Source: Candidatus Nanoperiomorbaceae bacterium
GTDB lineage: Bacteria; Patescibacteriota; Saccharimonadia; Saccharimonadales; Saccharimonadaceae
Direction of reading: 5' to 3'
Assembly: GCA_049297855.1 (NCBI GenBank)
Contig: JBAQVB010000006.1
Coordinates: forward strand, 1,958 to 65,957
Length of the DNA stretch: 64,000 bases
Below the pieces are notes generated by a model. The model ran no database searches. It was given only the letters and a program-made list of their open reading frames with translations, and was not told the DNA's origin. Below, piece after piece: positions 8,927-61,099 of the stretch (its first letter is position 1; every line of letters starts with the position of its first letter). The translations under genes and the position numbers were made by a program.

Positions 8927-9300
8927 AATGCGTAATGAAACCGTTTTCGCAATGTAGTGAATGTGATTAAACTGTAAATTGACGCAAATGCTCATTAAAG
9001 TGCAGACGCGCTTCACGATAGTATTAATTTAACTAGCATTTTGGCAAAAGATAGCCCCGCTAGATAATTTGCCCGAAACGGCGTTAATACCGGGCGTATA
9101 TACTAGATTCATGCTACCGGATGGGGCGCAACTATAATCTTGATAAATATGGATATGCGTTGAGTTTAGATCATAGCTCATGCCACCACTACCAACATTA
9201 TATATGTATACTTGATCTGTAGGGGTAGATAATTGACCTATATAGGCTCCCAAATTACCATCATTGGAACGGGCACTCGCGGTTGTGTTAGCTATCCAGT

Positions 9301-9306
9301 GGGGGG
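9301..9306 (-). repeat. C6 homopolymer (coding strand) at the frameshift point of pilin copy 1
   Basis: Plus strand reads GGGGGG. With 5 C the reading becomes ...SSPHWIANTTASARSNDGNLG..., continuous with ORF 9029..9322. Confidence 0.8.
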
Positions 9307-9544
9307 CTAGACCGAACAGCATAGCCGCTTATGCTCCCTTGATTGTCTACTTTATATGACTCAATGGCACTCACGACTTTGCCGACATTTTGCCTAACTG
9401 CCGTATCCTTTTGCGAATTTTGTAACGCTGGCCACGCAATGAAAACAACCAAAAATATTAAACCAGCAATCGCTAAAACCAACGCAACTTCAATTATCGT
9501 AAAACCTGAATTTGAACCTTAAGTTACAGTTGAACGTCCAGATC

Positions 9545-9564
9545 CTCTCTCTCCCTCTCTCTCT
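9545..9564 (-). repeat. (CT)4-CC-(CT)5 tract, which is (GA)n on the coding strand of the pilin copy 1 leader
   Basis: Read directly from sequence: cctctctctccctctctctctt. Encodes QEREGERG. Confidence 0.8.
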
Positions 9565-9868
9565 TGCTGGATCATGTTTTTCTCCTTCTTTTTCATACTT
9601 TTTCGTGCCGTCCAGTTAATCACAAGCGAGATAGCGTGTCAAGCGTCTATGGTTTTTTCGGCGAGTTTTATTGAATTTACTATGCTATCTCATTGTGTTA
9701 TGGCAACGATTGGCGATCAATATGGTTATTTGCTTTTCTGTTTCACGTATGCTACAATAAATCAGTAAATATCAAGCGAGTAAGGTTAAATATAAACTTT
9801 GCGACTCTATTTTCACAATAGAACAGAGATATATCTCTTATTTTACGCGCATAAAAGGAAAGGACGAA

Positions 9869-10414
9869 ATGTCAAGAATCGGAAAACTACCGGTCGTAAT
9901 TCCGGCTGGTGTGACAATCACGGTTGATGATGATTTCATCACAGTCAAAGGGCCAAAAGGCGAATTGAAACAATTCACTTTGCCAGAAGTTAAAGTTAAG
10001 GTTGATGGATCGGAAGTTCAATTAACGGCCATCGACAACAGCAAGATCGCCAACAGCCGTCACGGCCTGATGCGCGCGCTGATCCAAAATATGGTGATTG
10101 GCGTGAGTCAAGGTTTCGCGAAAAAGCTCGAAATTAATGGTGTCGGTTTTCGACTCCAGAGCAAAGGTCCGCAGGAAATCGAAATGGCGCTCGGGTTTAG
10201 TCATCCGGTTGATTACAAAGCGCCCGACGGTGTTAACCTAGACGTTGATACCAAAGGTCACATGTGGATCACGGTTAGCGGCGCCAGTAAACAACAGGTT
10301 GGCCAAGTTGCGGCGGAAATTCGCGCGCTCAAAGCGCCGGAACCCTACAAAGGAAAAGGCATTAAATACGCCGACGAAACGATTCTTCGTAAGGCGGGAA
10401 AGACAGGTAAATAA
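9869..10414 (+). CDS. rplF: 50S ribosomal protein L6
   Basis: 181 aa. MSRIGKLPVVIP start. SD-like AAAGGAAAGGA upstream. Confidence 0.96.
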   Translation: MSRIGKLPVVIPAGVTITVDDDFITVKGPKGELKQFTLPEVKVKVDGSEVQLTAIDNSKIANSRHGLMRALIQNMVIGVSQGFAKKLEINGVGFRLQSKGPQEIEMALGFSHPVDYKAPDGVNLDVDTKGHMWITVSGASKQQVGQVAAEIRALKAPEPYKGKGIKYADETILRKAGKTGK

Positions 10415-10755
10415 TGGCTAATTTGAGTAATTTACAGTTGCGCAAAAATCGCGTACGTGCCAAAATTGGCGGAACCGCTGAGCGGCCACGCCTAACGGTC
10501 ACCATTTCCAACGCCAACGTATCGGCGCAGTTAATCGATGACGTCGCGGGACAAACCCTGGCGGCGGCCACCACGGTTGGCCAGAAAATTGACGGCTCGT
10601 TATCCGATAAAGCCGCTCAAATTGGCGCGCAAATCGCCACCGTGGCTAAAAAAGCCAAAATCAGCAAAGTCGTTTTTGATCGAAACGGCCGCGCCTACGC
10701 CAAACGCTTACATGCTTTGGCTGAAGCCGCGCGTAAAGGAGGATTGGAGTTTTAA
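10414..10755 (+). CDS. rplR: 50S ribosomal protein L18
   Basis: 113 aa. Contains RPRLTV...S..N..AQLIDD and ends ...GGLEF. Confidence 0.93.
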   Translation: MANLSNLQLRKNRVRAKIGGTAERPRLTVTISNANVSAQLIDDVAGQTLAAATTVGQKIDGSLSDKAAQIGAQIATVAKKAKISKVVFDRNGRAYAKRLHALAEAARKGGLEF

Positions 10756-10757
10756 TT

Positions 10758-11465
10758 ATGGCAGAAGAAAATACGAAGACAACAAAGCCGGTTGAGACCG
10801 CGGCGGTGGCGCAAGCCAATCGTAATGGTGAAGCGGCGACTAATAAATTCAGTCGCGCCAAGAATTTTTCCTCGGATAATTTTACGGGTGGTCGACGCAA
10901 TGATCGTGGTCGCGGTAATCGTCGTGACGGTCGTGGACGTGGTCGGCGAGACAACAAACCGGTTGACAAAACTTTCGAGGATCAGACAATTTCCATTGAT
11001 CGCGTATCACGCACGGTGGCCGGTGGCCGGCGCCTGCGTTTTAAGGCGTTGGTCGTGGTTGGTGATAGAAAGAACCGCGTTGGCGTCGGTGTGGCGAAAG
11101 GCAATGACGTCCAATCGGCGATCGAAAAAGCCACAACTAAGGCTAAAAAATATTTGATCACGTTCCCGATGAACACCAAGGGCGCGACCATTCCGCACGA
11201 AGTTGAAATCAAACACGGTGGTGCGCACGTGCTGCTGAAACCGGCGGCACCGGGCACGGGTCTGATTGCGGGTGGCGTGGTGCGCTCAATTTTGGGCGTC
11301 ACCGGCATCACTAATATCATCAGTAAATCACTCGGCTCGGCTAACAAAGTTAACATCGCCTACGCGACGATTGACGCTTTGCGCACACTGCAACCGCGCG
11401 ACCATTGGGTGACCACCAAAGAGGCCGCTGCTCCCGCCACGAAAGGCACGAAAGGAGATAAATAA
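10758..11465 (+). CDS. rpsE: 30S ribosomal protein S5 with about 70-aa RG-rich N-terminal extension
   Basis: 235 aa. Core [25 protein letters not shown]-terminus is rich in RGRG/RRD repeats. Confidence 0.94.
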
Positions 11466-11977
11466 TGAAATACAACGAATTAAAAGTCGTCGCAAAAACT
11501 GATCGCAAGCGCGTCGGTCGCGGCATCTCGAGTGGCTACGGTAAAACCGCCGGTCGTGGTACCAAGGGCCAAAACGCCCGCACGGGACACAAATTGCGCC
11601 TAACTTTCACGGGTAACACCGGCCGTAGCGGAGCTAGCTATGTGGCTAATTTGCCAAAATTACGTGGCTTCAAGAGTAAACGCGCACCCGCTCAAGTGGT
11701 CTATGCCGACGCCTTAAACCGATTTGCGAAACAATCCGTGAGTAATCAGTCGCTGTTCGAGGCTGGATTGATAGCCACGCCACATCAAACCGTTAAAGTC
11801 ATCGCTGCAAAATCAGGCGATCCAACAACTTTTGCCGGTAAATTGAACGTATCCGGTGCTAGCGCTTCCGTGGTGGCCGCCATTACGAAAAATGGTGGTG
11901 AATTCACGAAAACTGCGGTGCCTTTACCGAAGGCGTCAGCGACGACTGAAGCTGAAACTAACACCGCAACCGACTAA
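11465..11977 (+). CDS. rplO: 50S ribosomal protein L15
   Basis: 170 aa. [21 protein letters not shown] motif. Directly abuts rpsE, leaving no room for rpmD/L30. Confidence 0.94.
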
Positions 11978-12000
11978 TCGTAGCCGTTCGCGCTCGTTCG

Positions 12001-12034
12001 CCACCAGCCATCGACGCATTGCCGGTGGTTTTTT
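12001..12034 (+). terminator. Rho-independent terminator after rplO
   Basis: Stem CCACC(A)GC / GC(C)GGTGG with one mismatch and a 12-nt loop, followed by TTTTTT. Confidence 0.65.
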
Positions 12035-12088
12035 GTCGTGACGGTGGATAACTATGACCATCCGTTGCTGGTGAATAATTCACGCTTG

Positions 12089-12097
12089 TGGTAGAAT
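12089..12097 (+). promoter_or_regulatory. Extended -10 (TGgTAGAAT) 7 nt upstream of ATG 12105
   Basis: Sequence motif only. It overlaps the first ATG (12096), which argues that 12105 is a leaderless start. Confidence 0.4.
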
Positions 12098-13673
12098 GAG
12101 TTACATGGATGACCACGATCGAGACGTTAAGCGCATGGATCCTAATGAGCCGGTTTTATTTCGCTTACGTGATTTTTATGTTAAGTTTCATCGCCAAATT
12201 ATTATTTTGGCCATTCTTTTGCAAATTTTTACCATCGGTATTCTACTGGCACTATTTGTGACGTTAATTACTAAACAGCCGACGTGGGAAATTATGTTAA
12301 TAATAGCGGGTGTCGCCACTGTGATTGAGCTCGTCGGTGGTTTTTTGCTGATCGGTTTTACGATGCGACCGCTCAAAATTGTTAGTCGACTCATTGATCA
12401 CAAATTGGATGACAACACAGAGCCCTTAAACCTCAACGAAGCCGTGTTTCATGATTTTGGCATGTCGCCTTTTACCGACAGTGTAAAACACGCTTTGGCC
12501 GGGTCAACCACCAGAGCAACCGTAAAAGCGCAGCTAAATTCTGGCATATTCGATAAAACCTCTTTAAATTTTCTCAACCGTTTGCCAATCGGGCTGATTG
12601 CGTTGAACGCGAATGGCGTCTTGGTGTTCGCCAATGCGCTGGCGCCACTAGTGCAGGGTGAGATAGAACTTGATTTTACGGGTTTCGAAGAAACCTTGTC
12701 ATCGTTTTTGATTGCCGCAAAACAGAACGCGATTTCACGACAAAAATCCTGGCTACGCGTTCAGAATCATCCCCGAAAAAATGACGAAGCGGATAGCGAT
12801 CGTCGGATTTACGATGTGATAGCCAGTTATGACCGCGACGCGCCAGGTGATGCGGAAACCGTTATTGTCACGATTGATCAAACCGATAGCTATCGTGATG
12901 ATGAAACCGGGATGGATTTTGTTGCCCTGGCGGCGCACGAGTTGCGCAGTCCGATCACGCTGATTCGCGGTTATCTGGAGATTTTGGGCGATCAGTTGCC
13001 ACACTTAACCGACCAACAGCAAAAAATCATGGATTCACTGAATGTCAGCGCTCACCGCTTATCGAGTTACGTTTCAAATGTTTTGAACGTTAGCCATTTC
13101 GATCATCGTCATTTGCAACTTGAACTCAAAGAAGTTAGCGTTGATACTATCATCAGCGATATCCGCTCTGACATGGAATTACGCGCCCGCACGGTTGGGC
13201 GAAAACTTATTTTCAATATCCCAAATGATCTGCCGACGGTCGCAGCCGACCGTTCGTCGATTTCCGAAGTCGTGTCTAATCTGATAGATAATGCTGTTAA
13301 ATATTCACATGACGGCGGATTGGTAGAAGTTTCGGCCAAAACAGCGGGCGATTTCGTTGATATTGCAGTGGCCGATCAGGGCATCGGTATTCCGGGCAAT
13401 GTAGCGGAGCATTTGTTTGACAAATTTTACAGATCGCACAAGAGCTCCAGTGTGGTTGGTGGCACCGGTCTCGGCCTCTATATTTCGCGCGCCATCGTCG
13501 AGAGTCACGGCGGTCATATCTCGGTGGAATCGGTCGAGGATAAAGGGTCGATCTTTACGTTTAGCTTGCCGATTTTTGCGAGCGTCGCAGATAAAATCGC
13601 TAGCGGTAACAACGTTGAACTAATTCGCGACAACGAACCGCGCATCAATAATCACGGTTTCACCGAATCATAA
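12096..13673 (+). CDS. Membrane sensor histidine kinase (2 TM, HisKA + HATPase_c)
   Basis: 525 aa. H-box AAHELRSPITLIRGY, N-box and G-boxes (DQGIGIP, GGTGLGLYISR). The real start may be ATG 12105. Confidence 0.9.
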   Translation: MSYMDDHDRDVKRMDPNEPVLFRLRDFYVKFHRQIIILAILLQIFTIGILLALFVTLITKQPTWEIMLIIAGVATVIELVGGFLLIGFTMRPLKIVSRLIDHKLDDNTEPLNLNEAVFHDFGMSPFTDSVKHALAGSTTRATVKAQLNSGIFDKTSLNFLNRLPIGLIALNANGVLVFANALAPLVQGEIELDFTGFEETLSSFLIAAKQNAISRQKSWLRVQNHPRKNDEADSDRRIYDVIASYDRDAPGDAETVIVTIDQTDSYRDDETGMDFVALAAHELRSPITLIRGYLEILGDQLPHLTDQQQKIMDSLNVSAHRLSSYVSNVLNVSHFDHRHLQLELKEVSVDTIISDIRSDMELRARTVGRKLIFNIPNDLPTVAADRSSISEVVSNLIDNAVKYSHDGGLVEVSAKTAGDFVDIAVADQGIGIPGNVAEHLFDKFYRSHKSSSVVGGTGLGLYISRAIVESHGGHISVESVEDKGSIFTFSLPIFASVADKIASGNNVELIRDNEPRINNHGFTES

Positions 13674-13702
13674 ACCGGTGATTTGGCGATTGAAGGCTAA
13701 TT

Positions 13703-13711
13703 TGATAAAAT
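13703..13711 (+). promoter_or_regulatory. Extended -10 (TGaTAAAAT) upstream of tRNA-Glu
   Basis: Motif ends 11 nt before the tRNA 5' end. Confidence 0.4.
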
Positions 13712-13722
13712 ATATCCGTTAT

Positions 13723-13797
13723 GGTTCGATCGTCTAACGGTTAGGACATCAGGTTCTCATCCTGACAATCCGGGTTCGATTCCCGGTCGGATCACCA
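13723..13797 (+). tRNA. tRNA-Glu (anticodon CUC), CCA encoded
   Basis: Manual fold. Acceptor GGTTCGA/TCGGATC, anticodon stem TCAGG/CCTGA with loop TTCTCAT, T-arm CCGGG-TTCGATT-CCCGG, discriminator A then CCA. TCGTCTAACGG D-region is typical of tRNA-Glu. Confidence 0.88.
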
Positions 13798-14103
13798 GAA
13801 TTTTGTCAAATCATTTGCCGTTGAATTAGATGCGTCTAAAGAATTTATCGAAAAATATCAGTTCAGCCGCGACAAAACCGGTAGAGAATTAGCATCGCAA
13901 CGGCTTAATTGTGGCGACATTGGATGGCATTGGTTTGGTTTGATTTTTTACGTGTGTTTTTTATTGTAATGTACGCGACTGCACGATATCATCAGGCGTG
14001 GATCAGTTGTTTTCATACTTTACCAGCGAAATCACCAGTTCGGTGCAATTTGGCACTTTTTATTTTGGGCTGATTCTGTTAAAATGTCTATGGTAAAGGA
14101 TAT

Positions 14104-15369
14104 TTGGTGGGATTTTTAGATCATTTGGTGAACAAAAAAGCATATAACGCGCGAACGTCGCAGCTGTCGACTGAGCGCGGTGATTTAGCTGACGCCGTTA
14201 TTCATGAAATTAGCGAAGGCGTAGTCGTGACGGACGATAAAGGGATTATTTCCTTGTTTAATTCGGGCGCGGCGACGCTGACTGGTTGGAAAACGGATGA
14301 GGTAATTAATTTGGATTACAGAACGGTTTTTAAGTTGTTTGATAAAACGAAGCACCCACTAGCGGATGCGGCCAATCCGATTATCGAATCGCAACGCTCC
14401 CAGGCGCCAGCCTCCAACAATGATTGTTATCTCGAAACCAGGTCTGGCAACCAGCTTTTAATTTCCATGAGCGCGATGCCGTTGTTAAAATCCGTGCGCG
14501 ATAAGTTAAGCAAGCAAGACGTTGTTCAGATGAGTAATCTAGTAATCACGTTTCGTGATGTGACAGCGGAACGCGCCGACCAAAATCAACAAACCGAATT
14601 CATTTCCACCGCCAGTCACGAGATGCGCACACCGGTAGCAATTATTGAAGGATACCTGGCGATGCTACTTAATCCGACGACATCAACGGTCGATGCGCGC
14701 GGTTTAGGCTACGCGAAAAAGGCTCATGAGGCGGCACAACATCTGGGTCGTTTGTTCCAGGATTTGTTGGACGTGACCAAGGCGGATGATCATCGTACGC
14801 TCACTAACATGATTTTAGTAAACGCCGGCGATGCAGCTAAACAAGTGGTGCAAGAGTTTCAACCGATGGCTGCACGCAAGTCGCTGCGCCTAACTTACGA
14901 TCAGAACGACGGTATCAGCGTCGATCATGGTGACAGAGTAATCGTGCCACTTTACGTCATCTATGTTGATTACGATCAGCTCAAGGAAATTTTGGGTAAT
15001 TTAGTGGAAAACGCTCTTAAGTATACCAAAATGGGTGGTGTGACGGTTGGGGTGCGAGATGATGCGGGCCGGGTGCGCTTTGAGGTGCGTGACACTGGTA
15101 TCGGCATCCCGCCAGAGGATTTGCCGCATCTGTTTCAGAAGTTTTACCGCGTCGATAATTCGGACACACGCGAAATCGGTGGCACTGGGCTAGGATTATA
15201 TTTGATCAAGAAACTGGCGAACAATATGGGTGGAGAAGTTGGGGTAGAGAGTCATTACGGTCGCGGTTCAACTTTTTGGGTGGAATTCGATAATTTGACG
15301 CGTGACGAAGCTATTCAAAAGGCTCGAATTATTAATCAACGAAATAAAACGGCGGCCACCCACCAATGA
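14104..15369 (+). CDS. Cytoplasmic PAS-domain sensor histidine kinase
   Basis: 421 aa with no TM segment. PAS-like N-terminus (ISEGVVVTDDKGIISLFNSGAATLTGW), H-box ASHEMRTPVAIIEGY and HATPase motifs. Non-ATG start (TTG 14104 or GTG 14107), so the start is uncertain. Confidence 0.88.
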   Translation: MVGFLDHLVNKKAYNARTSQLSTERGDLADAVIHEISEGVVVTDDKGIISLFNSGAATLTGWKTDEVINLDYRTVFKLFDKTKHPLADAANPIIESQRSQAPASNNDCYLETRSGNQLLISMSAMPLLKSVRDKLSKQDVVQMSNLVITFRDVTAERADQNQQTEFISTASHEMRTPVAIIEGYLAMLLNPTTSTVDARGLGYAKKAHEAAQHLGRLFQDLLDVTKADDHRTLTNMILVNAGDAAKQVVQEFQPMAARKSLRLTYDQNDGISVDHGDRVIVPLYVIYVDYDQLKEILGNLVENALKYTKMGGVTVGVRDDAGRVRFEVRDTGIGIPPEDLPHLFQKFYRVDNSDTREIGGTGLGLYLIKKLANNMGGEVGVESHYGRGSTFWVEFDNLTRDEAIQKARIINQRNKTAATHQ

Positions 15370-15441
15370 TCGTTGGTTGCATAAAATAAGCATGGGTGCT
15401 ATGATTGGTTAAATCATAAATAATGAAAGGGACGGGCGAGC

Positions 15442-16611: not shown

Positions 16612-16617
16612 TTCGTC

Positions 16618-17379: not shown

Positions 17380-17461
17380 TTGCACGAAATGGCATAAACG
17401 TGATAGAATCATAGAAGAACAAGAGAGGGCGTGTGGATGATGAATAATTACAATAAACGAG

Positions 17462-22352: not shown

Positions 22353-23777
22353 ATGAACTGGAGAAATATTTTTAAATCGCTACGAAATTCCGACATGCGC
22401 CGACGCGTATTAGCGGTGCTCGGCATTATTATCGTTTATCGCTTTTTGTCGCACGTGCCAGTGCCAATGGCGGGACCGACTGAGCTCAAAACCATCATGG
22501 ACCAAGCGTTGTCGTCCAATGCGTTCGGCGGTTTTTTGAATCTATTATCAGGTGGAGCGCTGGCTAGTTTTTCAATCATGCTGGTCGGCTTGTCTCCTTA
22601 TATTACCGCCAGCGTCATCACGCAGTTGCTGACCAAGGCCGTACCTCAGCTCGAGGAAATGAACAAGGATGGCGAAAGCGGTCGACGTCGCATCAATCAG
22701 TGGACGCGCATCTTGACATTGCCGCTCGCAATCTTGCAAAGCATCGCCTATATTTTCATTCTGCGTCAATCCGCCCTCAGCGGTGCCACTACTACGCTTG
22801 ACATGAACATGACGCAGTGGGTCGTGGCCGTATCGGCTATGACGGCCGGCGCCATGATGTTAATGTGGCTCGGTGAAATTATCACCGAAAAAGGCATTGG
22901 TAACGGTATTTCTTTGCTTATTTTTGCCGGTATTATTTCGCAGCTGCCGACAACATTGGGTTCGCTCGGCTCGGCTATTTTCACGCCTGGGACCGGCGCC
23001 TCGGCCGATCCGTTTCATTTGTTTAACTGGTTCACAATTCCATTGTTAAATAACACGGCAACGTGGCTGACGTTGGCGCTAATGGCAGTTGGTCTAATGG
23101 TATTGTATTTACTCGTTAAAATTAATGAAGGTCAACGGGTTATCACCATTAATTATGCTAAACGGGTGCGGGGAAATTCGGCCTACGGTGGCGTGACATC
23201 GATTTTGCCGATTAAATTGATCACGGCCGGTGTGATTCCGGTAATTTTTGCGGTGGCATTTTTAGCATTGCCGGCCTTTTTGGGGCAATTGTTGGTGGCA
23301 ACACACTGGAATGTCGGACTCGGGCAAAACCTGATCTTGTGGTTCCAGCGCTCAGGCAATAATACATTTACAGCCAGTGGCGATTGGCACCAATTTATTT
23401 ATCCGGTGGCGTACTTCATTTTGGTCGTGGCATTTACTTATTTTTACACTTCCATTGTATTTAACGCTAATGAAATTTCCGAAAACCTGCAAAAACAGGG
23501 CGGATTTATTGGTGGAGTACGGCCAGGCAAACAGACCGCGTCCTACCTCAAGAAAGTGGTCAACCGATTAACGCTCTTTGGATCGTTGGCGCTGGGCTTG
23601 ATCGCCATTTTACCGTTCATTTGTGAATATATTTTTATCAAAATCGGACTCGGTTCGGCGGCGCAAAATTTGTCTATCGGCGGCACAGGACTACTTATCG
23701 TGGTGTCAGTGGCACTGGAATCGTTGCGTCAATTAAACTCGCGTGCCCTAATGGTAACGTATGATGATTTTAAATAG
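22353..23777 (+). CDS. secY: Preprotein translocase subunit SecY
   Basis: 474 aa with 10 predicted TM segments. SecY-like motifs (GISLLIFAGI, RPGKQTASYL). Confidence 0.95.
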   Translation: MNWRNIFKSLRNSDMRRRVLAVLGIIIVYRFLSHVPVPMAGPTELKTIMDQALSSNAFGGFLNLLSGGALASFSIMLVGLSPYITASVITQLLTKAVPQLEEMNKDGESGRRRINQWTRILTLPLAILQSIAYIFILRQSALSGATTTLDMNMTQWVVAVSAMTAGAMMLMWLGEIITEKGIGNGISLLIFAGIISQLPTTLGSLGSAIFTPGTGASADPFHLFNWFTIPLLNNTATWLTLALMAVGLMVLYLLVKINEGQRVITINYAKRVRGNSAYGGVTSILPIKLITAGVIPVIFAVAFLALPAFLGQLLVATHWNVGLGQNLILWFQRSGNNTFTASGDWHQFIYPVAYFILVVAFTYFYTSIVFNANEISENLQKQGGFIGGVRPGKQTASYLKKVVNRLTLFGSLALGLIAILPFICEYIFIKIGLGSAAQNLSIGGTGLLIVVSVALESLRQLNSRALMVTYDDFK

Positions 23778-29782: not shown

Positions 29783-30305
29783 ATGATGAAAATCGCAAGA
29801 AATCACGGACGAGTTAGTTTCCCTAAACTAAAAACATTACCCCCCCCCACGATCTAGCGGCTTCACTATAATTGAGGTAGCGTTAGTCTTAGCTATAGCC
29901 GGACTTATTTTCCTGGTAGTGTTTATCGCCTGGCCAGCACTACAGAATTCGCAACAAAACCAGGCCAGGCGTCAGGACGTCGGGCGAGTGATAAGCGCAT
30001 TGGAAGCATATAAGATGGACCACCAGGGACAATTCCCACTTGGTGGATGGTATAAATCAGATGGTTCAAGTAGTAACCGGGAATACAATTTCTCAAACTA
30101 TACTAACAAGCTCTCCCAAATATACAATATTGAGGTCTTTGACCTAGGCACTTCTACTTGGAGAGCTATGGGTAGCGCGCGAGATATCAATGTAATTCCC
30201 GGCAGAGTTTGTCCTGGCGACGCTCGTACACCAACCTCGGATAACGCTGCGGTAGAAGTGGGACTTGTCGGCAACGGCGACGCCAACTATTGCCAGTCGC
30301 TATAA
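29783..30305 (+). CDS. Type IV pilin-like protein, copy 2. The reading frame is interrupted at the poly-C tract in the leader (frame OFF as assembled).
   Basis: ATG 29783/29786 gives MMKIARNHGRVSFPKLKTLPPP.. and stops at TAG 29855-57. Body frame runs from GGC 29859: G|FTIIEVALVLAIAGLIFLVVFIAWPALQNSQ... to stop 30305. C-terminal Cys pair present (C...YC). One C fewer restores the frame. Confidence 0.8.
29840..29848 (+). repeat. C9 homopolymer within pilin copy 2 leader codons
   Basis: Counted directly: 9 consecutive C. Confidence 0.95.
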
Positions 30306-40868: not shown

Positions 40869-41269
40869 TGGCTAGTAAACAATATTTCTACGGTCTCGGT
40901 CGACGCAAAGCCGCCACGGCCACGGCGCGTTTATACGCTAGCGGCAAAGGCAACATCACGATCAATGACAAATCAGCCGACAAGTTTTTTGACGGCAATA
41001 AAGCTTTGATCGCCGAATTAACCGATCCGCTGGCGGTCGTCAGCAAACAGAAAGATTTCGATATCACCATCCTCGTTAAAGGTGGCGGAACATCGGGCCA
41101 AGTTGACGCGATTAAACTCGCCATCAGCAAAGCTCTGGCCGGAATCAACGATGACCTCAAGGGTACACTCGGCAAAGCCGGATTTTTGCGACGCGATTCG
41201 CGCGTAGTGGAACGCAAAAAATACGGTCTACGCGGCGCCCGCAAACGCGAACAGTTCAGTAAGCGCTAA
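40868..41269 (+). CDS. rpsI: 30S ribosomal protein S9
   Basis: 133 aa. GLGRRKAATA motif, ends ...RKREQFSKR. Confidence 0.96.
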   Translation: MASKQYFYGLGRRKAATATARLYASGKGNITINDKSADKFFDGNKALIAELTDPLAVVSKQKDFDITILVKGGGTSGQVDAIKLAISKALAGINDDLKGTLGKAGFLRRDSRVVERKKYGLRGARKREQFSKR

Positions 41270-41331
41270 AACATTCGGGCTGTCGCGACCGCTGAAACCG
41301 CGACAAAAACAAGAGACTGACCGCTCTAAAA

Positions 41332-41358
41332 CCTCCGACAAGTGCCGGAGGTTTTATT
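41332..41358 (+). terminator. Rho-independent terminator after rpsI
   Basis: Stem CCTCCG/CGGAGG (41332-37 / 41346-51) with an 8-nt loop, then TTTTATTATT. Confidence 0.65.
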
Positions 41359-41517
41359 ATTGATGAAAACACAAGGTAAGCGGATAATATTTTTATATAT
41401 ACTTTACGAACTCCATGGCAACCGACAGGGATTTTTAATTTCGCGTTCCTCTTGTGCTAATATAAATACTGATATACAATAAGGACAGTAATTAATTCAA
41501 TAAGGAAACTATATATA

Positions 41518-42049
41518 ATGATTAGCGATAAATCCATTGCGACGACCAAAACATCTGCAGACATAAACGAGAATACCCCCCCACCGAGCTAGTGGCTTCA
41601 CCATTATCGAGGTAGCGTTGGTTTTAGCTATCGCTGGGCTTATCTTTCTCGTGGTATTTATCGCCTGGCCAGCGTTACAAAATTCGCAAAAAGATACGGC
41701 GTTACGTCAGGATACCGGCCGCATCGCCAGCGCCCTGGAGTCAATAATGGTGGATAATCAAGGAGAGCTAGACACTCATCTTGTTTCTTCCACGATTCAA
41801 AACTATGCTGGCAAGTTAAGTGTTATTAATAATATTCGGGTGTTACCGTGGTGGTCAAATAAAGCTAATAACATGCTAAATCATAGCACGGCGGTAGTTT
41901 ATGACAACGCAAGCTGCCCACTACATCTCGGTTCTAGCAACCAAAACACAAATCCAATATTTGGCTTTTCTAATAGCAGTCCAATAATAAATGGCGCCGC
42001 TGTCGTGGTTTGGCTCAACTCTGGCGCCTTGTACTGTGTAGGAGTGTAA
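41518..42049 (+). CDS. Type IV pilin-like protein, copy 3. The reading frame is interrupted at the poly-C tract in the leader (frame OFF as assembled).
   Basis: ATG 41518 gives MISDKSIATTKTSADINENTPPPS and stops at TAG 41590-92. Body frame runs from GGC 41594: G|FTIIEVALVLAIAGLIFLVVFIAWPALQNSQKD... to stop 42049. C-terminal Cys pair (SCPL...LYCVGV). One C fewer restores the frame. Confidence 0.8.
41576..41582 (+). repeat. C7 homopolymer within pilin copy 3 leader codons
   Basis: Counted directly: 7 consecutive C. Confidence 0.95.
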
Positions 42050-51578: not shown

Positions 51579-51690
51579 CGCACCGCCGGATCAATCGATC
51601 TGTTGCGTTCAATACCGCATTTTAATCGCTAGCGCTCGTGCCAGTTCAATTTTACATGATGACGAATTCGGCGATATCGAGGTCAGGCGC

Positions 51691-52335: not shown

Positions 52336-52393
52336 ATTTACGTTACAGCTAAAAGTGGCTTTACATAGTGAATGTGCTAAAATTGTTTGTATA

Positions 52394-54088: not shown

Positions 54089-54121
54089 CATTATCACGAA
54101 TGCATTCCGCAAAATAACAAG

Positions 54122-54150
54122 AAAAATTCCGTTGTTTTAACGGAATTTAA
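54122..54150. terminator. Hairpin between the convergent HK gene and rplK (bidirectional terminator candidate)
   Basis: Perfect 10-bp stem AAATTCCGTT/AACGGAATTT (54124-33 / 54139-48) with a 5-nt loop. An A-run upstream gives a T-run on the minus strand. Confidence 0.6.
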
Positions 54151-54171
54151 CAAGGAAGGCTGCCGAACAGA

Positions 54172-54603
54172 TTAATCCTCGACCGTCACGCCCATACTGC
54201 GCGCCGTGCCAGCCACAATTTTCGCACCAGCCTCGACGTCGTTGGCATTGGAAAAACCATCATCCATTTTTTTCTGAGCGATAGCGCGCGCCTGATCCCA
54301 GGTGATTTTACCAACTTTATCGGCCTGCGGTTTGCCCGAACCTTTTTCGATGCCGGCGGCTTCGCGAATTAAATCATCAACCGGTTGGCCAAGCGATTTC
54401 CAGGTGAACGAGCGATCGTCGTAAACCTGCAAATGGACAATAACGTTTTTGCCCATCAGATCCTTAGTTTTTTCATTGAACGGATTTATAAAATCCATCA
54501 TATTCAGCCCCCATTGACCGAGCGTCGATCCCACTGGTGGGCCGGCGGTCGCACGACCGGCCGGAATGCGCAATTTCAAATTTCCTACAATTTTCTTAGC
54601 CAC
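54172..54603 (-). CDS. rplK: 50S ribosomal protein L11
   Basis: 143 aa. KLRIPAGRATAGPPVGSTLGQWGLNMM motif. Confidence 0.96.
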   Translation of the reverse strand: MAKKIVGNLKLRIPAGRATAGPPVGSTLGQWGLNMMDFINPFNEKTKDLMGKNVIVHLQVYDDRSFTWKSLGQPVDDLIREAAGIEKGSGKPQADKVGKITWDQARAIAQKKMDDGFSNANDVEAGAKIVAGTARSMGVTVED

Positions 54604-54754
54604 TTTTTCTCCTTAGATTAAATTTTCTAGTGTTTTCACGAAAAAGATGAAGCTTTCGCAAAAAGTGTAACGCGATCATTTTACTAAATTTGTCGCAAAA
54701 ATGCAAGATGCCGGACAGAAATTATGGTAAGAATATGCTAAAATATAAAATCAG

Positions 54755-55953
54755 ATGAACGAATCAAACAACAAAGTCGTGACAAAGTCTTCGGACAAAC
54801 CTGCACGACAATCTAATTTTGAGTTGCTTCGCATTTTAGCAATCTTCGGATCACATCGTTCTCTTGGGCGTCATGAATAATGCCTTTCAGACACGCACGT
54901 CATTATACGCGACTCCGCACTTTTTTCCTAGCCTAGCGATCTTTCCGTTGATTGCCATTTTTGGACACATGGGCAACAACATTTTCATCTTGCTTTCCGG
55001 ATATTTTCTGTTCGGTAAAAATATTAATTTCACGAGCCAGACTAAAAAAATACTTGCACAAATCGCGTTTGCAACGTTGACGTTAATTTTTATATCATTT
55101 TATCATGCTTGAACTCGCCGTCCACGGAGCATTTCCATGGTGGACGCCAAAAAATATACAAATAACTCAGTTCGATTTCTTTAATAATTCGGGGTGGTTT
55201 CTGGGCTATTATTTGTTCATAATACTATTCGCCAAATTATTTTTGAATGAAAAATTAAAAAATATGCAGAAGAAAACGTGGCACTTCGTGCTATCCATTG
55301 AACTGGCAATAATTTGCATTGGGTCACTCTATGGTTTTCTAGACAGTTTTGTCAAAGGTGATCCGCTATTATCTCCGTCTACTTTTGTTCTGGGAATTTT
55401 TCTTTACATTCTAGGTTCATATATCCGGAAATATAATCCTTTTGAGCGCATCAAGACATGGGCGTTGTGGGCTAGTGCCATTATTTTGGCTATTTTGCCG
55501 ATATGGTCTTTTTATGAGAATACAAAGCTAGCAATTCTTCAATATACTCCGGGGACTGTTTTTCAGCAATCCCACTTGATTGACGTTAATCCCTATATGG
55601 GCAACATCGTAATTTTATTGCTGAGCGTTATTATTTTTGAATTGTTCCGCAGAATCAGACCCTTCGTGTCAGAGACAATTAATTACGTCGCCAGTGCCAC
55701 GTTAATGATCTTTTTGGTGCATAAGTCCGAAGTAGTTTTATCTACGGCGAAAGGTAATCATAGTTGGGAGAAACTTTTGATGTATCATCCTAAACAGTTT
55801 ATCCTCAACGTGTTGTTTTTGACGCTGGTCTATTTTGCAACGGGATTCGTGGTATATGTATTTTATGACCAATTTACGCGCAAACTCTGGCCAAAAATTT
55901 CAAGATTAATACTAAAACAAAAAGCAGCGACGAGTATTAGTAAAATTAAATAG
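54755..55953 (+). pseudogene. Acyltransferase-3 family membrane protein, broken by two frameshifts
   Basis: Three consecutive frames. 54755-54880 reads MNESNN...RQSNFELLRILAIFG (typical family N-terminus) then stops. ORF 54864..55112 contains GHMGNNIFILLSGYFLFG. ORF 55105..55953 is polytopic. The second junction lies in T-runs at 55087-55101. Confidence 0.7.
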
Positions 55954-56003
55954 CCGGAATTGAATTATTCTGGCTATAAAATTATTCGCGGCACCGAAGT
56001 TTA

Positions 56004-56552
56004 TTACACTTTTTTAACTTGTAATACGTCCAGCTCAACGTTCGTGTCGCGGCCGAACATCGAAACGGCAACCTTGACTTTGCCTTTGGCCGGATCGATC
56101 GACTGAATTGCGCCGTCAAAGCCCTTGAATGGACCGTCGATAATATTAATAACTTCACCGATTTGAAAATCGATCTCGGTTTTAGCTTCCTCGGCGCCCA
56201 TGCGTTTTTTGATGGATTTGATTTCTTTATCACTGACTGGCGTAGGATCGGTGCCCGCGCCAACGAAGCCGGTCACGCCCGGCGTATTGCGAATGATAAA
56301 CCAAGCTTCGTCGTCGAGTTTCATTTGCGCCAAGATGTAACCCTGAAAAATCAGTGAGTCAACCACTTTTTTCTTGCCATTTTTAATCTGGATGGTTTTT
56401 TCGCGTGGCACGATAACATCAAAAATCTTGTCAGCCATGTCAACGCCGTTGATGCGCTGACGAATTTGCTCGGCGGCGCGCTCCTCGTAACCCGCATAGG
56501 TGTGAATAGCGTACCATTGTTTAGTGTCGTCATATCGTTTAACTTTTGCCAT
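56004..56552 (-). CDS. nusG: Transcription termination/antitermination factor NusG
   Basis: 182 aa. WYAIHTYAGYEE (NGN domain) and a C-terminal KOW (GPFKGFDGAI). Confidence 0.95.
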   Translation of the reverse strand: MAKVKRYDDTKQWYAIHTYAGYEERAAEQIRQRINGVDMADKIFDVIVPREKTIQIKNGKKKVVDSLIFQGYILAQMKLDDEAWFIIRNTPGVTGFVGAGTDPTPVSDKEIKSIKKRMGAEEAKTEIDFQIGEVINIIDGPFKGFDGAIQSIDPAKGKVKVAVSMFGRDTNVELDVLQVKKV

Positions 56553-56583
56553 TGAATCTCCTTTTCCTCGCTACCACCGCGAA

Positions 56584-56994
56584 TTACCTTAATATCACGC
56601 TCTTAACAATAAACTGGAACAACCAGTCGAGTAGCGTCACAATCACCGCAAAAAATACCGTAAACGCCAGCACTGCCCAGGTCAACGACCAAGTAGCGCG
56701 ACGATTCGGCCACTCCACTTGACGCAGTTCATGCCACGAATCACGCACGTAACGGCCAGCCGCAAATAGCGGTCGCCACAGCACAAACGGCTTTTTATTT
56801 GGATGCTTGGCCGCGCGTTGAGCGAGCTTGGCCGCCATCTTAGGCGAAACTTGGCGATCATGTTGAACCGGCGACTGGGTTAGCTCAGACGTGTCTACTT
56901 TGGATCGTATCGGTTCAGCTACGCCAGCTTTGACACGTCGCACAACTCTTTTTTTACCGTCCGCCACAAGCACTCCTTTCCGCGATTTACTCAC
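56584..56994 (-). CDS. secE: Preprotein translocase subunit SecE (long basic N-terminal extension)
   Basis: 136 aa. C-terminal ELRQVEWPNRRATW followed by a single TM segment is canonical SecE. Lies upstream of nusG. Confidence 0.85.
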   Translation of the reverse strand: MSKSRKGVLVADGKKRVVRRVKAGVAEPIRSKVDTSELTQSPVQHDRQVSPKMAAKLAQRAAKHPNKKPFVLWRPLFAAGRYVRDSWHELRQVEWPNRRATWSLTWAVLAFTVFFAVIVTLLDWLFQFIVKSVILR

Positions 56995-57072
56995 TTAATT
57001 TAAAAAGTCTGGCTTATTATTTTCGCCAGATGTCAAGTTAATTATAGCAAATTCACGTTACGCGTGCAAGCG

Positions 57073-57081
57073 TGTTACAAT
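57073..57081 (+). promoter_or_regulatory. Extended -10 (TGtTACAAT) 6 nt upstream of ATG 57088
   Basis: Sequence motif only. Confidence 0.4.
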
Positions 57082-57087
57082 TAGTAC

Positions 57088-57330
57088 ATGGATTTTCATT
57101 TTTCGATCGCTTGGGTATTGGGCGGGATCGCTCTCATAGTGATTGGCGTCGCCTTGATCAGGTTTTATAAAATAATTGCCGACAACCTGCTGTCCGGTGT
57201 TGGGAGTTATGCTCATATCAAGCTGGCTGCGCTAATCACTATCGGCACCGGGGTGGCCGCTATGACGAATCTGATTCCGCTCTTACTCAGTCTACTAGCG
57301 ACCGTGTTCGTGCAGGGCAGTGGCCGCTAG
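57088..57330 (+). CDS. Small hypothetical membrane protein (80 aa, 2 TM)
   Basis: ORF with two hydrophobic helices. Leaderless-type promoter spacing. Confidence 0.5.
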   Translation: MDFHFSIAWVLGGIALIVIGVALIRFYKIIADNLLSGVGSYAHIKLAALITIGTGVAAMTNLIPLLLSLLATVFVQGSGR

Positions 57331-57425
57331 CTTGCCAAACAACGTAAAGTTTGCTAAAATAAAACACGTTAATTAGTAATTGTGGGAGATCCGAAAAATC
57401 GTTCGAACCACGAAAGGAGTAACTT

Positions 57426-58475
57426 ATGGCAAAAACTAAACAGGAATTATTGGCTGAGGCAGATAAACTCGGTTTAACTTTATCGGTGAAGGACACGGTC
57501 GCGCAAATCACCGCCGCGATCAAGGACGCCAAAGAGGCGAACCGCGACACTAAGGACGATGCGCCGCTGTCTGCTGATGAAGTTCAAACAGTAGTCAACG
57601 AAGAAGAGCAAGAGGATGCCGTCGAACAGTTCGCCAAATCCGGCAAGCGCTCCGCCAAATCCGTACACGAAGAGGCCGCTGAGGCCGAGCGCGTCGCTCG
57701 CAAAGACGCCGGCGATACCACCGCCCAGGATGGCGCGATCGCCAATATAGAGCACGGCCCGGCGCCGATTCCGCGACCGTTGAGTGAACGTCACGGCAAA
57801 AACTTTAAAAAAGTTGCCGGTAAAATCGACCACACTAAAACCTATCCACTCGATGAAGCAATTCAACTGGCCGTCGCCACTGCCAACACTAAATTCGACA
57901 GTACAGTCGAAATCCACGCCCGGCTCGGCGTCGATCCGAAACAGGCCGACCAAAATGTGCGCGCCACCGTGTCGCTGCCTAACGGCACCGGTAAAACAAT
58001 TCGCGTCGCAGCTTTCGTGGCGGAAGCGGACGCCACGGCTGCAAAAGCGGCTGGCGCTGACATCGCCGGCGAGGCGGCCATTATAGAACTGTTAACCAAG
58101 GAAAATTTAGCGTTCGACGTTTTGGTAGCAACACCAACCGAAATGCCAAAACTCGGCCGTTTCGCGCGTCTGCTCGGGCCACGTGGTCTGATGCCGAATC
58201 CGAAAGCTGGCACCGTTTCAACCGATCCAGCTCAAGCTATCAAAGAGGCTAAAGCTGGTAAAATCGAATTTCGCGTCGACAAACAATCGATCGTCCACAC
58301 TGGCGTCGGTAAAGTTAGCTTTGGTGTGACCAAATTGACAGAAAATATGCGTGCGTTTTTTGACGCACTAAACGCCGCTAAACCGAGCTCGCTCAAAGGC
58401 AACTATATTTTGTCGCTGTCGCTGTCAACCACGATGGGTCCAGGCGTAAAAGTCGACGTTAATAATATTAAATAA
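57426..58475 (+). CDS. rplA: 50S ribosomal protein L1 with ~120-aa acidic N-terminal extension
   Basis: 349 aa. AAGGAG lies 7 nt upstream of the ATG. L1 core runs from about aa 121 (HGKNFKKVAGKIDHTKTYPLDEAIQL ... GPRGLMPNPKAGTV). Confidence 0.9.
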   Translation: MAKTKQELLAEADKLGLTLSVKDTVAQITAAIKDAKEANRDTKDDAPLSADEVQTVVNEEEQEDAVEQFAKSGKRSAKSVHEEAAEAERVARKDAGDTTAQDGAIANIEHGPAPIPRPLSERHGKNFKKVAGKIDHTKTYPLDEAIQLAVATANTKFDSTVEIHARLGVDPKQADQNVRATVSLPNGTGKTIRVAAFVAEADATAAKAAGADIAGEAAIIELLTKENLAFDVLVATPTEMPKLGRFARLLGPRGLMPNPKAGTVSTDPAQAIKEAKAGKIEFRVDKQSIVHTGVGKVSFGVTKLTENMRAFFDALNAAKPSSLKGNYILSLSLSTTMGPGVKVDVNNIK

Positions 58476-58490
58476 GCCGTAGATTAGATC

Positions 58491-58919
58491 ATGCCGTTTC
58501 GTTCACGCAGAACCAATAACGCATATAAAACTTCGCGTCATGCTAGACGACATGACGCGGGTTGTGCATTTTGCGATCCAAATTGCCTTCAACCATTAAT
58601 TGAAGCAACTGAACTATTTTGGGTAATAGAGAACGCATATCCATACGCAATATTCGACGAACAAGGTATAGCCGATCATCTGCTGATCGTTCCTAAGCGC
58701 CATGTCCTAGGTATTAGCGAATTTACATCGGCGGAAAGTCGCGAGTTTATGCAATTAGTTAGTAAATACGACCGGCTGGGTTATTCGTTGTACGCGCGCG
58801 CTAATAATAGCAAGTCCAAATCCGTGTCGCACCAACACGCACATCTGATGAAACTCGACGGTAAAACCGTTAAGCTCAACGTCACCGTGCGTAAACCATA
58901 TATAAACTGGTGGCACTAA
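58491..58919 (+). CDS. HIT (histidine triad) family protein
   Basis: 142 aa. HLLIVPKRHV and HQHAHLM (HxHxHxx) motifs. Confidence 0.8.
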   Translation: MPFRSRRTNNAYKTSRHARRHDAGCAFCDPNCLQPLIEATELFWVIENAYPYAIFDEQGIADHLLIVPKRHVLGISEFTSAESREFMQLVSKYDRLGYSLYARANNSKSKSVSHQHAHLMKLDGKTVKLNVTVRKPYINWWH

Positions 58920-59046
58920 TTTCACTGGTATTTGGTAATTTTTTTCGTCCATTGAGTTTTGAAGTGTTCTAAGACCATCTTCAACAATTGCGCCGATACC
59001 ATATCAAATGGGACTGTCCGCGACAGCGTTTTACCGTCAAGGATTT

Positions 59047-59691
59047 TCATTTTTGATCTCCGTTTTGTTGCATTATCGAATCACGAATACGCAAAAAAAC
59101 AACGTCGGGCGTAGCATTTCCGTTGATAGTTGGAATGTGAAAATCGTGTGCGATTTGCGCGTAGCCGCGGTTAACGTTGTCTTGAAAGTCATTGCCACGC
59201 GATTCGAAACTATCGGCCCGGGATTTGTCGTCGCGCCCCAATAAACGTTTCGCGCGTTCAGCGTCGGACAAAGTTAAAATCACCGCCGCGTCGGGCTCAA
59301 AATAGCGTTTTGGCAGATTAGCACGCGTAAGCTCCACAATTTCGTCGTAAATTACGCCTTCGCCAAAGTGTTGATACGCCAGAGTACTCCACCAGTTACG
59401 CGAACTCAACACGGTGATACCTCTTCGCAGAGCCGGGGCGATTTTTTTCAACCACAACTCACGGCGCGCCGCCGTAAATAATAAAACGTTCGTCATTGGA
59501 TCTAGCCCGAACTGACGATTTTTAATGATCGTACGCATCTGATCGGTCGACACAATGCCACCCGGTTCTTCAACGATGATGACTTCTTGGTGGCGATCCG
59601 AAAAATATTGCGCTAGTTTCGCGGCTTGTGTGGATTTACCCGTGCCGTCCTGACCTTCGATGACAATGTATTTGCCGGATTTATTCGTCAT
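59047..59691 (-). CDS. tmk: Thymidylate kinase
   Basis: 214 aa. IVIEGQDGTGKSTQ P-loop. DR.Y motif substituted (SRNWWST). Confidence 0.88.
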   Translation of the reverse strand: MTNKSGKYIVIEGQDGTGKSTQAAKLAQYFSDRHQEVIIVEEPGGIVSTDQMRTIIKNRQFGLDPMTNVLLFTAARRELWLKKIAPALRRGITVLSSRNWWSTLAYQHFGEGVIYDEIVELTRANLPKRYFEPDAAVILTLSDAERAKRLLGRDDKSRADSFESRGNDFQDNVNRGYAQIAHDFHIPTINGNATPDVVFLRIRDSIMQQNGDQK

Positions 59692-59697
59692 ATTATC

Positions 59698-60417
59698 CTA
59701 CAAAATTCCATCACTGAGGCCACTAATTTTAACTGGTAATTTGCGCATGTCCTTAAAGGCGCGCGGCAACATTTGTTCGGGCGTCCAGTTTCGTTTTAAT
59801 TCATCGAGATCCGACGAGGCTTGGTATTTACCCGACACGCCACCGCGACCTTTTTCATACGACCCGTCGACCGGTCCGGTGTGATGAAAAATAATCTGAC
59901 CTATACGTTCGCCAACCGGCAACACCACTGATGCGTATTTATTCAAATTGTAAATTTCCAACGTTATGCGATTGATGTAACCCGGATCGATCCAGCCGGC
60001 GTCAAAACAAACCGCCACGCCGTTACGCCCCCATGAGCTGCGCGAACGAATTTCGCAAGCGCCAGCGCTGGCGCGAATGCCGACAAATTCATGCGTGTGC
60101 GCTAAAATGCGCTCACCGGGCTGCAACACAATAATTGGATGATCCTCCGGAATGTTTGCAAACGGCAGGCGACGATTTTTTCTAGTGTATTCTCCATTGG
60201 TCTCCGCTACCAACGGCCCCTTAAAATAGCGTTGAACTTCGGCCTTGTCGAACGGATTATAAATGTTATTTTCGTTGTCCGGTTCCTGCCGATAAAAATT
60301 ATAGCCCAGTGTAATATCGAGCGATGCCTCGGCCAGATGCTTTATGTTAAACGGTTCGCAAACAATGCCACCGTCTGCAATTGACGCCAAAATCTCCGTG
60401 TTTGAATATACCCCCAT
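59698..60417 (-). CDS. dcd: dCTP deaminase family protein (long form)
   Basis: 239 aa. N-terminus ILASIADGGIVCEP...ASLDITLG, with GWIDPGY and ITLEIYN motifs of the dCTP deaminase/dUTPase fold. Confidence 0.8.
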   Translation of the reverse strand: MGVYSNTEILASIADGGIVCEPFNIKHLAEASLDITLGYNFYRQEPDNENNIYNPFDKAEVQRYFKGPLVAETNGEYTRKNRRLPFANIPEDHPIIVLQPGERILAHTHEFVGIRASAGACEIRSRSSWGRNGVAVCFDAGWIDPGYINRITLEIYNLNKYASVVLPVGERIGQIIFHHTGPVDGSYEKGRGGVSGKYQASSDLDELKRNWTPEQMLPRAFKDMRKLPVKISGLSDGIL

Positions 60418-60484
60418 GCAGCTTCCTGTGCATTTATTCTATCACACGAAAGGTAAATTTGCATTTCTATTCCACTTGTGCTAA

Positions 60485-61099
60485 ATGAATGGCATAATGA
60501 AGATAGCCAAAAATAATACCCCCCCCCGAGTTTCGGTAGAGAATAAGATTGGAGAGGGAGGCAATCAGCGCGGTTTTACTGTTATAGAGGTCGCTCTGGT
60601 TTTGGCCATCGCTGGTCTGATTTTCCTTGTCGTTTTCGTCGCTTGGCCAGCGCTCCAAAATTCGCAAGCGGATACGGCCAGGCGGCAAGATGTCGGGATC
60701 GTTATCAGGGCTATTGATTCTTACAGATTGGATGCATCCAACGGTGGCTGGTTTCCAGCCTGGCGAGGGGTATATCTAAATGGCAACCGCCAGTCGCTTT
60801 CCTTTGGCCCCTATCTTCAAGGACTATCCAGCAACACGCAGTTTGTTTACATTCGCGCGGGTAATAATCCTGGCTCGAATTGGACTTACAAAGATTCTCT
60901 CTCGTCTGGAAGCGTAACCAGCAATGCTACTACATCTGATTCCGTCCCGTCCATGAATGGTATTTCGGTATATACTGGTGCGGAATGTGGAAATGGTCAA
61001 TCAATGATTGCGCTGGGTGACCCAGCTGTAAATCCGACACATATTGCGGTTGTAATTCGATTATCTTCTGGAATTTATTACTGTCAACAAGCCTACTAG
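60485..61099 (+). CDS. Type IV pilin-like protein, copy 4 (frame ON through a C9 tract)
   Basis: 204-aa intact ORF: ...MKIAKNNTPPRVSVENKIGEGGNQRG|FTVIEVALVLAIAGLIFLVVFVAWPALQNSQ... with a C-terminal Cys pair (AECGNG...IYYCQQAY). The likely start is ATG 60497 (MKIAKN, parallel to MKIARN in copy 2). Confidence 0.85.
   Translation: MNGIMKIAKNNTPPRVSVENKIGEGGNQRGFTVIEVALVLAIAGLIFLVVFVAWPALQNSQADTARRQDVGIVIRAIDSYRLDASNGGWFPAWRGVYLNGNRQSLSFGPYLQGLSSNTQFVYIRAGNNPGSNWTYKDSLSSGSVTSNATTSDSVPSMNGISVYTGAECGNGQSMIALGDPAVNPTHIAVVIRLSSGIYYCQQAY
60519..60527 (+). repeat. C9 homopolymer within pilin copy 4 leader codons
   Basis: Counted directly: 9 consecutive C, read as T-P-P-R. Confidence 0.95.

Follow-up and report, generated by a model that had tools for sequence, protein, structure and literature searches.

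Four paralogous type IV (prepilin-type) pilin genes, here termed c1 to c4, lie in a 64,000-nucleotide (nt) stretch of the genome of a Candidatus Nanoperiomorbaceae bacterium (Patescibacteriota, Saccharimonadia; contig JBAQVB010000006.1, 68,430 nt long), referred to below as the window. Their leaders carry simple repeats, a (GA)n repeat in c1 and poly-C in the other three, and we consider it probable, at about 0.6, that these repeats are slipped-strand contingency loci which gate translation of the pilins. Each gene would have its own start signals; slipped-strand mispairing at replication would alter the length of the leader tract, tract length would place the ATG in or out of the pilin frame, and cell lineages would then display heritable, reversible subsets of pilins. 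In the assembly consensus c4 (C9) would be ON, c2 (C9) and c3 (C7) OFF by one base, and c1 further decayed; at c3, at least, the C-terminal domain would also have been exchanged between strains by recombination. The N-terminal helix would be held constant because all variants need the same prepilin peptidase and assembly machinery. That slippage really turns the genes on and off in natural populations is an inference of ours, as is the benefit, which would lie in changed attachment to the host or in evading phage or host defences. An earlier note on this DNA had suggested switching among alternative pilins. That idea gains support, but the mechanism, hypermutable leader repeats, had gone unseen; the note had also missed that c4 alone is an intact open reading frame (ORF).

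The observations behind this proposal are the anatomy and reading frames of the genes, the polymorphism of the tracts, their distribution among relatives and the homology of the copies. A six-frame search of the window found four prepilin-type N-termini, with the G|FT motif at 9506 (minus strand), 29859, 41594 and 60572, and a repeat search returned c1-c4 as a single family of 72-78% nucleotide identity. All four have the cleavage/methylation motif GFT(I/V)IE (G|F-x-x-x-E, Glu at +5). Mature residues 1-32 are the same in c1, c2 and c3, and c4 departs from them by two conservative changes, I4V and I23V. Pairwise, the 96 nt that encode this helix differ at 16-25 positions, giving 16-23 synonymous and 0-2 non-synonymous codons; the synonymous substitution rate (dS) is saturated and the non-synonymous rate (dN) is 0-0.06. 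Since the helix is unchanged despite saturated synonymous divergence, each copy must for most of its history have been functional and subject to purifying selection, and purifying selection on the assembly helix is thus supported. One nucleotide block departs from the general divergence: the 26-mer TGGCCAGCGTTACAAAATTCGCAAAA occurs exactly twice in the window, in c1 and c3, with none expected.

Profile searches agree with membership of the type IV pilins. Against the TIGR02532 cut-off of 16.3 bits, c4 (20.9), c1 (18.9) and c2 (16.6) pass and c3 (16.2) is borderline; c4 also matches PF07963 (21.8 bits; cut-off 21.2). Every copy has two cysteines near its C-terminus, 28-42 residues apart, and the corresponding pair, C164 and C196, is invariant in an alignment of 43 homologues; a D-region-like loop, bounded by a putative disulphide bond, is therefore predicted for all four copies. 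The AlphaFold2 model of c4 (predicted local distance difference test score 73.5) has a helix at 29-79 followed by seven beta strands. A Foldseek search of the PDB with this model returned nothing at E below 2, and a PDB sequence search gave only a weak match to the geopilin N-terminus (E 0.02). The window ORFs that were scanned included no pilB, pilC or pilD. The earlier note's account of the family is confirmed in these respects: the four copies with a shared helix, its divergent synonymous codons, the nucleotide core common to copies 1 and 3, the C-terminal cysteine pair and purifying selection on the helix.

The 26-nt identity lies at 9409-9434 in c1 and 41666-41691 in c3, within a longer stretch in which 36 of 38 nt agree and whose surroundings are synonymously diverged. 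Another short sequence, AATTCGCAA, which encodes N-S-Q, is the same in c1-c4 and in the relative L082. Such identity could be the mark of a short conversion tract or of nucleotide-level constraint.

Translation of the leaders separates the copies. The sole intact, ON gene, c4 (60497-61099, plus strand; ATG 60497, Gly 60572, stop 61097-61099), is annotated as MFZ2560122.1; its product starts MKIAKNNTPPR..., and a further in-frame ATG lies upstream at 60485. Its leader has a C9 homopolymer at 60519-60527, read in frame as T-P-P-R and situated at a place homologous to the runs of c2 and c3, though 22 nt after the ATG at 60497 as against 57-58 nt in those two. The c2 copy (29783-30305, plus strand; ATG 29783, Gly 29859, stop 30303-30305) is OFF: its leader ORF ends after 24 codons at the TAG at 29855-29857, and the distance from ATG to Gly is 76 nt, or 3n+1. 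The c3 copy (41518-42049, plus strand; ATG 41518, Gly 41594, stop 42047-42049) is OFF with the same layout, 24 codons ending at the TAG at 41590-41592 and an ATG-to-Gly distance of 76 nt (3n+1). Tract length thus sets the frame: the C9 run of c2 (29840-29848) would be in frame at C8 or C11, the C7 run of c3 (41576-41582) at C6 or C9, and deletion of one C from either gene gives a complete prepilin with a 25-residue leader. Both bodies are otherwise free of lesions over about 150 codons, and this state, OFF but otherwise intact, is what a reversible switch would produce.

The most damaged copy, c1 (9575-9029, minus strand; ATG 9575-9573, Gly(-1) codon 9506-9504), is inactivated, as a pseudogene or a silent copy. 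It has two leader (GA)4-5 tracts within 9545-9564, visible on the plus strand as CT repeats at 9545-9552 and 9555-9564, and an in-frame TAA at 9521-9519, five codons ahead of the Gly. Further on, a C6 run in the body (G6 on the plus strand, 9301-9306) coincides with a frameshift, and the first frame stops at 9290-9288. A correction of -1 at this run, to C5, makes the gene readable to a stop at 9031-9029 and yields a full 157-residue mature pilin ending C...FC. Over 9519-9530 the c1 leader reads ...RSTVT*GSNS|GFT where a related Nanoperiomorbaceae pilin, P0037, reads ...RSTVTS|GFT; this comparison suggests that an in-frame insertion of 12 nt brought in the stop codon.

Alternative starts do not rescue the frames. 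In c2 there is no alternative in-frame start and in c3 only an ATA. The GenBank annotation (PGAP) uses this ATA, at 41573-41575, for the protein MFZ2560102.1 (MPPHRAS|GFT), sidestepping the frameshift; we judge such a start unlikely, as ATA initiates translation very weakly and a Shine-Dalgarno sequence is missing. Other gene callers put the start within the helix (P0121) or at a later point (P0130), and no full-length protein is on record for c1 or c2. Since annotation pipelines drop these genes or assign them improbable starts, the pilin repertoires of metagenome-assembled genomes (MAGs) of this kind are likely mis-annotated, and under-counted.

The tracts stand out statistically. Homopolymers of G or C of at least 6 number only four in the 64 kb, all in pilin genes and three at the same leader position. 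For this length class a first-order Markov simulation predicts 8.1, so the observed four are a deficit; for runs of at least 9 it predicts 0.045 where two are observed, and none of 200 simulations contained two such runs. The codon CCC is rare, making up 11% of 627 proline codons, and CCC-CCC is used in none of the 11 Pro-Pro dicodons of 45 other genes, which argues that the tract is a nucleotide-level feature and not a response to a need for proline. MutS and MutL were not found in Saccharibacteria in a comparative study (PMC8406219); both instability of the tracts and depletion of G/C runs elsewhere in the window would follow from their lack.

To compare tract lengths within the species we used conspecific contigs from independent public runs (Illumina-derived assemblies), retrieved through exact-protein look-ups of neighbouring genes. 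The c2 run is again C9 in L090, the c3 run C7 in L092, and the c4 run C9 in L081, where the allele is 94% identical; sequencing error can be rejected as the source of the frameshifts, since independent assemblies give the same lengths. Other alleles differ. The c3 run is C7 in the window and L092 and C10 in L083 and L085, with almost identical flanks, the L083 allele combining C10 with a replaced C-terminal half and an in-frame TAG. The GA tracts of c1 have eight extra nt in L087, one GA unit in one tract and three in the other, and contig L089 ends inside the c1 GA tract. The repeats therefore change length within the species. The c1 TAA is present in L087 as well, and the C6 run and body of c1 are the same in three other samples (L161-L163). 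Contig ends at the pilin genes were considered as a sign of hypervariability and rejected: L161-L163 start at the stretch shared by c1 and c3, a common start explained by breakage of a de Bruijn assembler at this repeat. Poly-C runs may add to assembly breaks at pilin loci alongside it.

Among relatives, the tract follows the lineage. Pilins with the same helix in GTDB representative genomes (80 loci) carry short leaders (MKKSQK|G), and a C run of at least 6 lies upstream of only one of 101 pilin N-termini from these genomes, that one belonging to the closest MAG. Within the window's own lineage, recognised by PALQ(N/K)SQ, a long leader containing PP occurs in 23 of 83 pilins; among other Saccharibacteria pilins the count is 0 of 53. 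Leaders with NTT-QQ surroundings have one, two or three prolines (TTPQQ, TTPPQQ, TPPPQQ), a pattern which looks like the in-frame survivors of a slipping C tract. In-frame runs of C5-C6 occur in the relatives L082, L006 and L095. In another species (L165/L166) the run is C9 and the ATG is out of frame, the gene being called from a downstream TTG; the OFF copy of L165 needs one base added, where c2 and c3 need one removed. The feature is both lineage-wide and lineage-specific.

Some observations weigh against phase variation. In two to four samples per locus, too few for a strong negative, no single locus showed both an ON and an OFF length: c3 was C7, C7, C10 and C10, one OFF phase throughout, and c2 and c4 were C9 in two samples each. 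ON and OFF states were seen only across paralogues and across species. A collection of 5.8 billion proteins contained no full-length (ON) c2 or c3, only the truncated P0121 and P0130. The samples of the species number only about three to five, read at the level of assembly consensus, and a metagenome scan returned relatives and no conspecific contigs. Additional stops in c1 and in the L083 c3 allele suggest that some copies are decaying and not switching. Finally, the lack of MutS and MutL is taken from PMC8406219, which reports it for Saccharibacteria as a group.

Decay is accordingly the alternative that survives best, although we think it unlikely as a full account: c1-c3 would be pseudogenes of a shrinking genome, killed by homopolymer slippage, leaving c4 as the sole working pilin with no adaptive switching. 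The three lesion sites of c1 are what it predicts, as are the in-frame TAG that the L083 c3 allele has besides its frameshift and the OFF state of every c2 and c3 allele observed. It accounts poorly for c2 and c3 being intact over about 150 codons apart from the tract, with helices identical in protein despite saturated dS, and for a tract made up purely of CCC, a codon that is otherwise little used. Nor would decay hold the tract at one position in different species and subfamilies, where in-frame copies differ by entire prolines, or keep a tract in the working c4, where such a liability should be purged as in the rest of the window.

Recoding without mutation has less to commend it, and we give it little credence. 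Here a tRNA-Pro frameshift, or RNA polymerase stutter on poly-C, would allow constitutive low expression of c2 and c3. Sequences of the CCC-C type are known to be prone to frameshifting; c2 and c3 share the 3n+1 offset, the phase of c3 is the same at C7 and C10, making three distinct alleles, and the 0-frame run encodes a PPP(P) stalling motif with a TAG within two to three codons. The agreement in phase over three alleles has, however, a chance probability of about 0.1, and the L083 C10 allele is dead anyway through its TAG. Moreover, similar tracts are read in frame in c4 and in many homologues, the OFF copy of L165 needs the opposite shift, of one added nucleotide, and the stop is not adjacent to the run, unlike that of typical programmed +1 sites.

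The C-terminal halves bear on a third alternative, antigenic variation of the Neisseria pilE/pilS type, with c4 as expression locus and c1-c3 as silent donors for gene conversion. By BLAST these halves are barely linked (best E 3e-4); profile-profile comparison (HHalign) of the C-terminal halves alone links them at probabilities of 89-99% and E of 1e-17 to 2e-6 over 68-78 columns, and the sets of orthologues that they retrieve from other metagenomes do not overlap. On this evidence they are four old, divergent but homologous subfamilies. At the c3 locus the C-terminal halves of two conspecific strains are 35% identical between conserved ends, with almost identical flanks. This cassette-like replacement would suit a pilE/pilS system, as would one ON copy beside several non-expressed ones and the 26-nt block identical in c1 and c3. 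Yet the variable region of the L083 c3 allele matches no other copy in the window, and synonymous sites are saturated between copies, so that no recent gene conversion is indicated. The supposedly silent copies, moreover, have a start codon, leader, full N-terminal helix and promoter-like motif; tblastn of each C-terminal half against the window found no partial silent cassettes beyond the four genes, and no G-quadruplex (G4) motif was found. We regard this model as very improbable.

The c4 locus is to be read otherwise. Its C-terminal half has a dN/dS of about 0.2 between the window and L081. Over 60750-62250, dS against L081 is 0.13-0.30 across the c4 C-terminal half, rplJ and rplL, and 0.006 in the adjoining dcd. 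Because the divergence runs through rplJ and rplL, this block is read as an imported recombination tract, probably acquired from a diverged strain; for the same reason, the pile-up of single-nucleotide polymorphisms in c4 was rejected as a sign of pilin-specific selection. Diversifying selection on the exposed half, which the earlier note had proposed, is only partly supported, by the swapped c3 halves (35% identity) but not by c4, with its dN/dS of about 0.2 in an imported tract.

A further model, that of the earlier note itself, placed four functional pilins with unrelated C-terminal domains at ribosomal-operon junctions, where they would ride on read-through; it is largely refuted, and we regard it too as very improbable. 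Three of the four copies do adjoin ribosomal protein genes: c1 lies between rpsH and rplF, along with a P-type ATPase gene, c3 follows rpsI, and c4 precedes rplJ. The fourth, c2, does not: its neighbours encode an FMN reductase and a tRNA methyltransferase, and secY and infA are 6 kb and 6.7 kb away. Three of the four copies are untranslatable as written. The C-terminal halves are homologous (HHalign, 89-99%), not unrelated, and they are not clearly AT-rich as had been supposed: their GC content is 0.43-0.48, the mean for genes being 0.48 +/- 0.03.

Nor does the neighbourhood favour read-through. An intrinsic-terminator-like hairpin (41327-41356, plus strand; an 11-bp stem with five G-C pairs, then TTATTG) separates rpsI, which ends at 41269, from c3. 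An exact 10-mer, CTTGTGCTAA, lies upstream of c3 (41451-41460) and of c4 (60475-60484), both on the plus strand, and nowhere else in the window; it is a putative promoter element, probably an extended -10. Similar sequences, (C)TT(G/A)TGCTAA, lie upstream of pilins in relatives (L082, about 5975; L006, about 350; L064, about 5975; L165, about 27), at distances from the ATG that vary across the lineage from 12 to 57 nt. The spacing in c4 and L082 would imply an almost leaderless mRNA. Copies thus have their own conserved upstream motif.

Synteny gives the same answer. A ribosomal-protein or trpS neighbour was found in 2 of 149 related pilin loci (3-6 kb flanks) and the placement is absent from the other 147; the neighbour queries behind these counts included a histidine kinase ORF (14104-15369) and not the true secY (22353-23777), and the matches L114 and L115 are kinase homologues. 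The 74%-identical c4 homologue in L082 adjoins argS. Because the placement is rare among relatives and the ribosomal clusters of the window, which is itself dense in ribosomal genes, are also broken by many unrelated, non-pilin genes, the association is specific to this species and probably incidental, and the breakpoints are not peculiar to pilins.

The canonical ribosomal-protein clusters, at 5779-37249 and 56004-62361, are interrupted at many points. The P-type ATPase gene (6128-8821) lies between rpsH and rplF. The interval from rplO to secY (22353-23777) holds two histidine kinases, a response regulator, a pseudouridine synthase and gltX, together with a 1036-residue protein that has no Pfam match at E<=1e-5. 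About 13 kb separate the secY block from infA, and HIT, tmk and dcd lie between rplA and rplJ. The rplA ORF (57426-58475) encodes 349 residues, of which only 151-339 form the L1 domain, the N-terminal 150 being without a Pfam match, and rplK was not detected in the interval from secE-nusG (minus strand, 56004-56994) to rplA. In a contig from another Saccharibacteria metagenome (L146, JAEEGL013860523.1, 494-1774), a start-less, truncated pilin fragment lies directly upstream of trpS, an arrangement which echoes the adjacency of c3 and trpS. Switching by an invertible promoter or shufflon was rejected, as there are no local inverted repeats, the only ones being the genes themselves, 32-51 kb apart, and no recombinase was found among the scanned pilin neighbours.

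Type IV pili are experimentally established organelles of host binding and motility in Saccharibacteria (PMC11623550, PMC9894109). The terms phase variation, homopolymer and frameshift are absent from the main paper on these pili (PMC11623550), and in the literature on Saccharibacteria and Patescibacteria we found no report of phase variation or of homopolymeric tracts of this kind. The probable repeat-gated, phase-variable pilin repertoire would be a known kind of mechanism and, as far as we could find, new for the phylum. The fullest version of the idea, which we hold tentatively and at slightly short of even odds, is that an episymbiont keeps a repertoire of alternative, major-type pilins, each gated independently by poly-C in its leader, which yields stochastic surfaces; that this is the first contingency-locus system in the candidate phyla radiation; and that it is enabled by lack of MutS and MutL, with G/C runs purged genome-wide. 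If slippage does switch the pilins, the pilus surface would vary by chance within a population, with possible effects on host range or on evasion of phage and host defences; obligate episymbionts that change or broaden their host range would have a simple genetic mechanism for heterogeneity of attachment, and the contingency-locus concept would extend from pathogens to the candidate phyla radiation.

The nearest described pilins are those of TM7x, PilA1, PilA2 and orphan pilins, small 'lollipop' proteins with divergent globular domains, the orphans being encoded away from the assembly loci (PMC11623550). The window's pilins resemble them in the prepilin N-terminus, GFTIIEVALVLA..., in divergent globular domains and in the orphan placement of the genes; they differ in their leaders, which in the TM7x type are short (MKKSQK|G) and without poly-C. 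With Neisseria pilE/pilS they share a constant N-terminus, a hypervariable C-terminal half, a disulphide-bounded region and one expressed copy beside several non-expressed ones, but here the non-expressed copies are complete with leader and helix, recent conversion between copies is not seen and a G4 element is absent. The opa genes of Neisseria carry CTCTT repeats in the region coding for the signal peptide. The likeness to this system lies in scattered paralogous genes for surface proteins, each with its own start and with a leader repeat whose number sets the frame, so that each copy would switch independently, and in a conserved framework with hypervariable exposed segments; the differences are that the unit repeated is a single C or a GA dinucleotide and not a pentamer, that the products are type IV pilins and not beta-barrel adhesins, that the organism is an ultrasmall patescibacterial episymbiont, and that switching is, in the present case, a proposal. 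Neisseria pilC has a poly-G tract, and Campylobacter jejuni and Helicobacter pylori have poly-G/C contingency loci in genomes without MutS/MutL-type mismatch repair. The present genes resemble these: in both, a run of roughly 7-10 G or C bases lies in the signal-peptide or 5' coding part of a gene for a pilus or surface protein, and MutS/MutL-type repair is lacking, here by a report on Saccharibacteria as a group (PMC8406219). They differ in what is gated: here it is the pilin subunits themselves, as a set of alternative paralogues.

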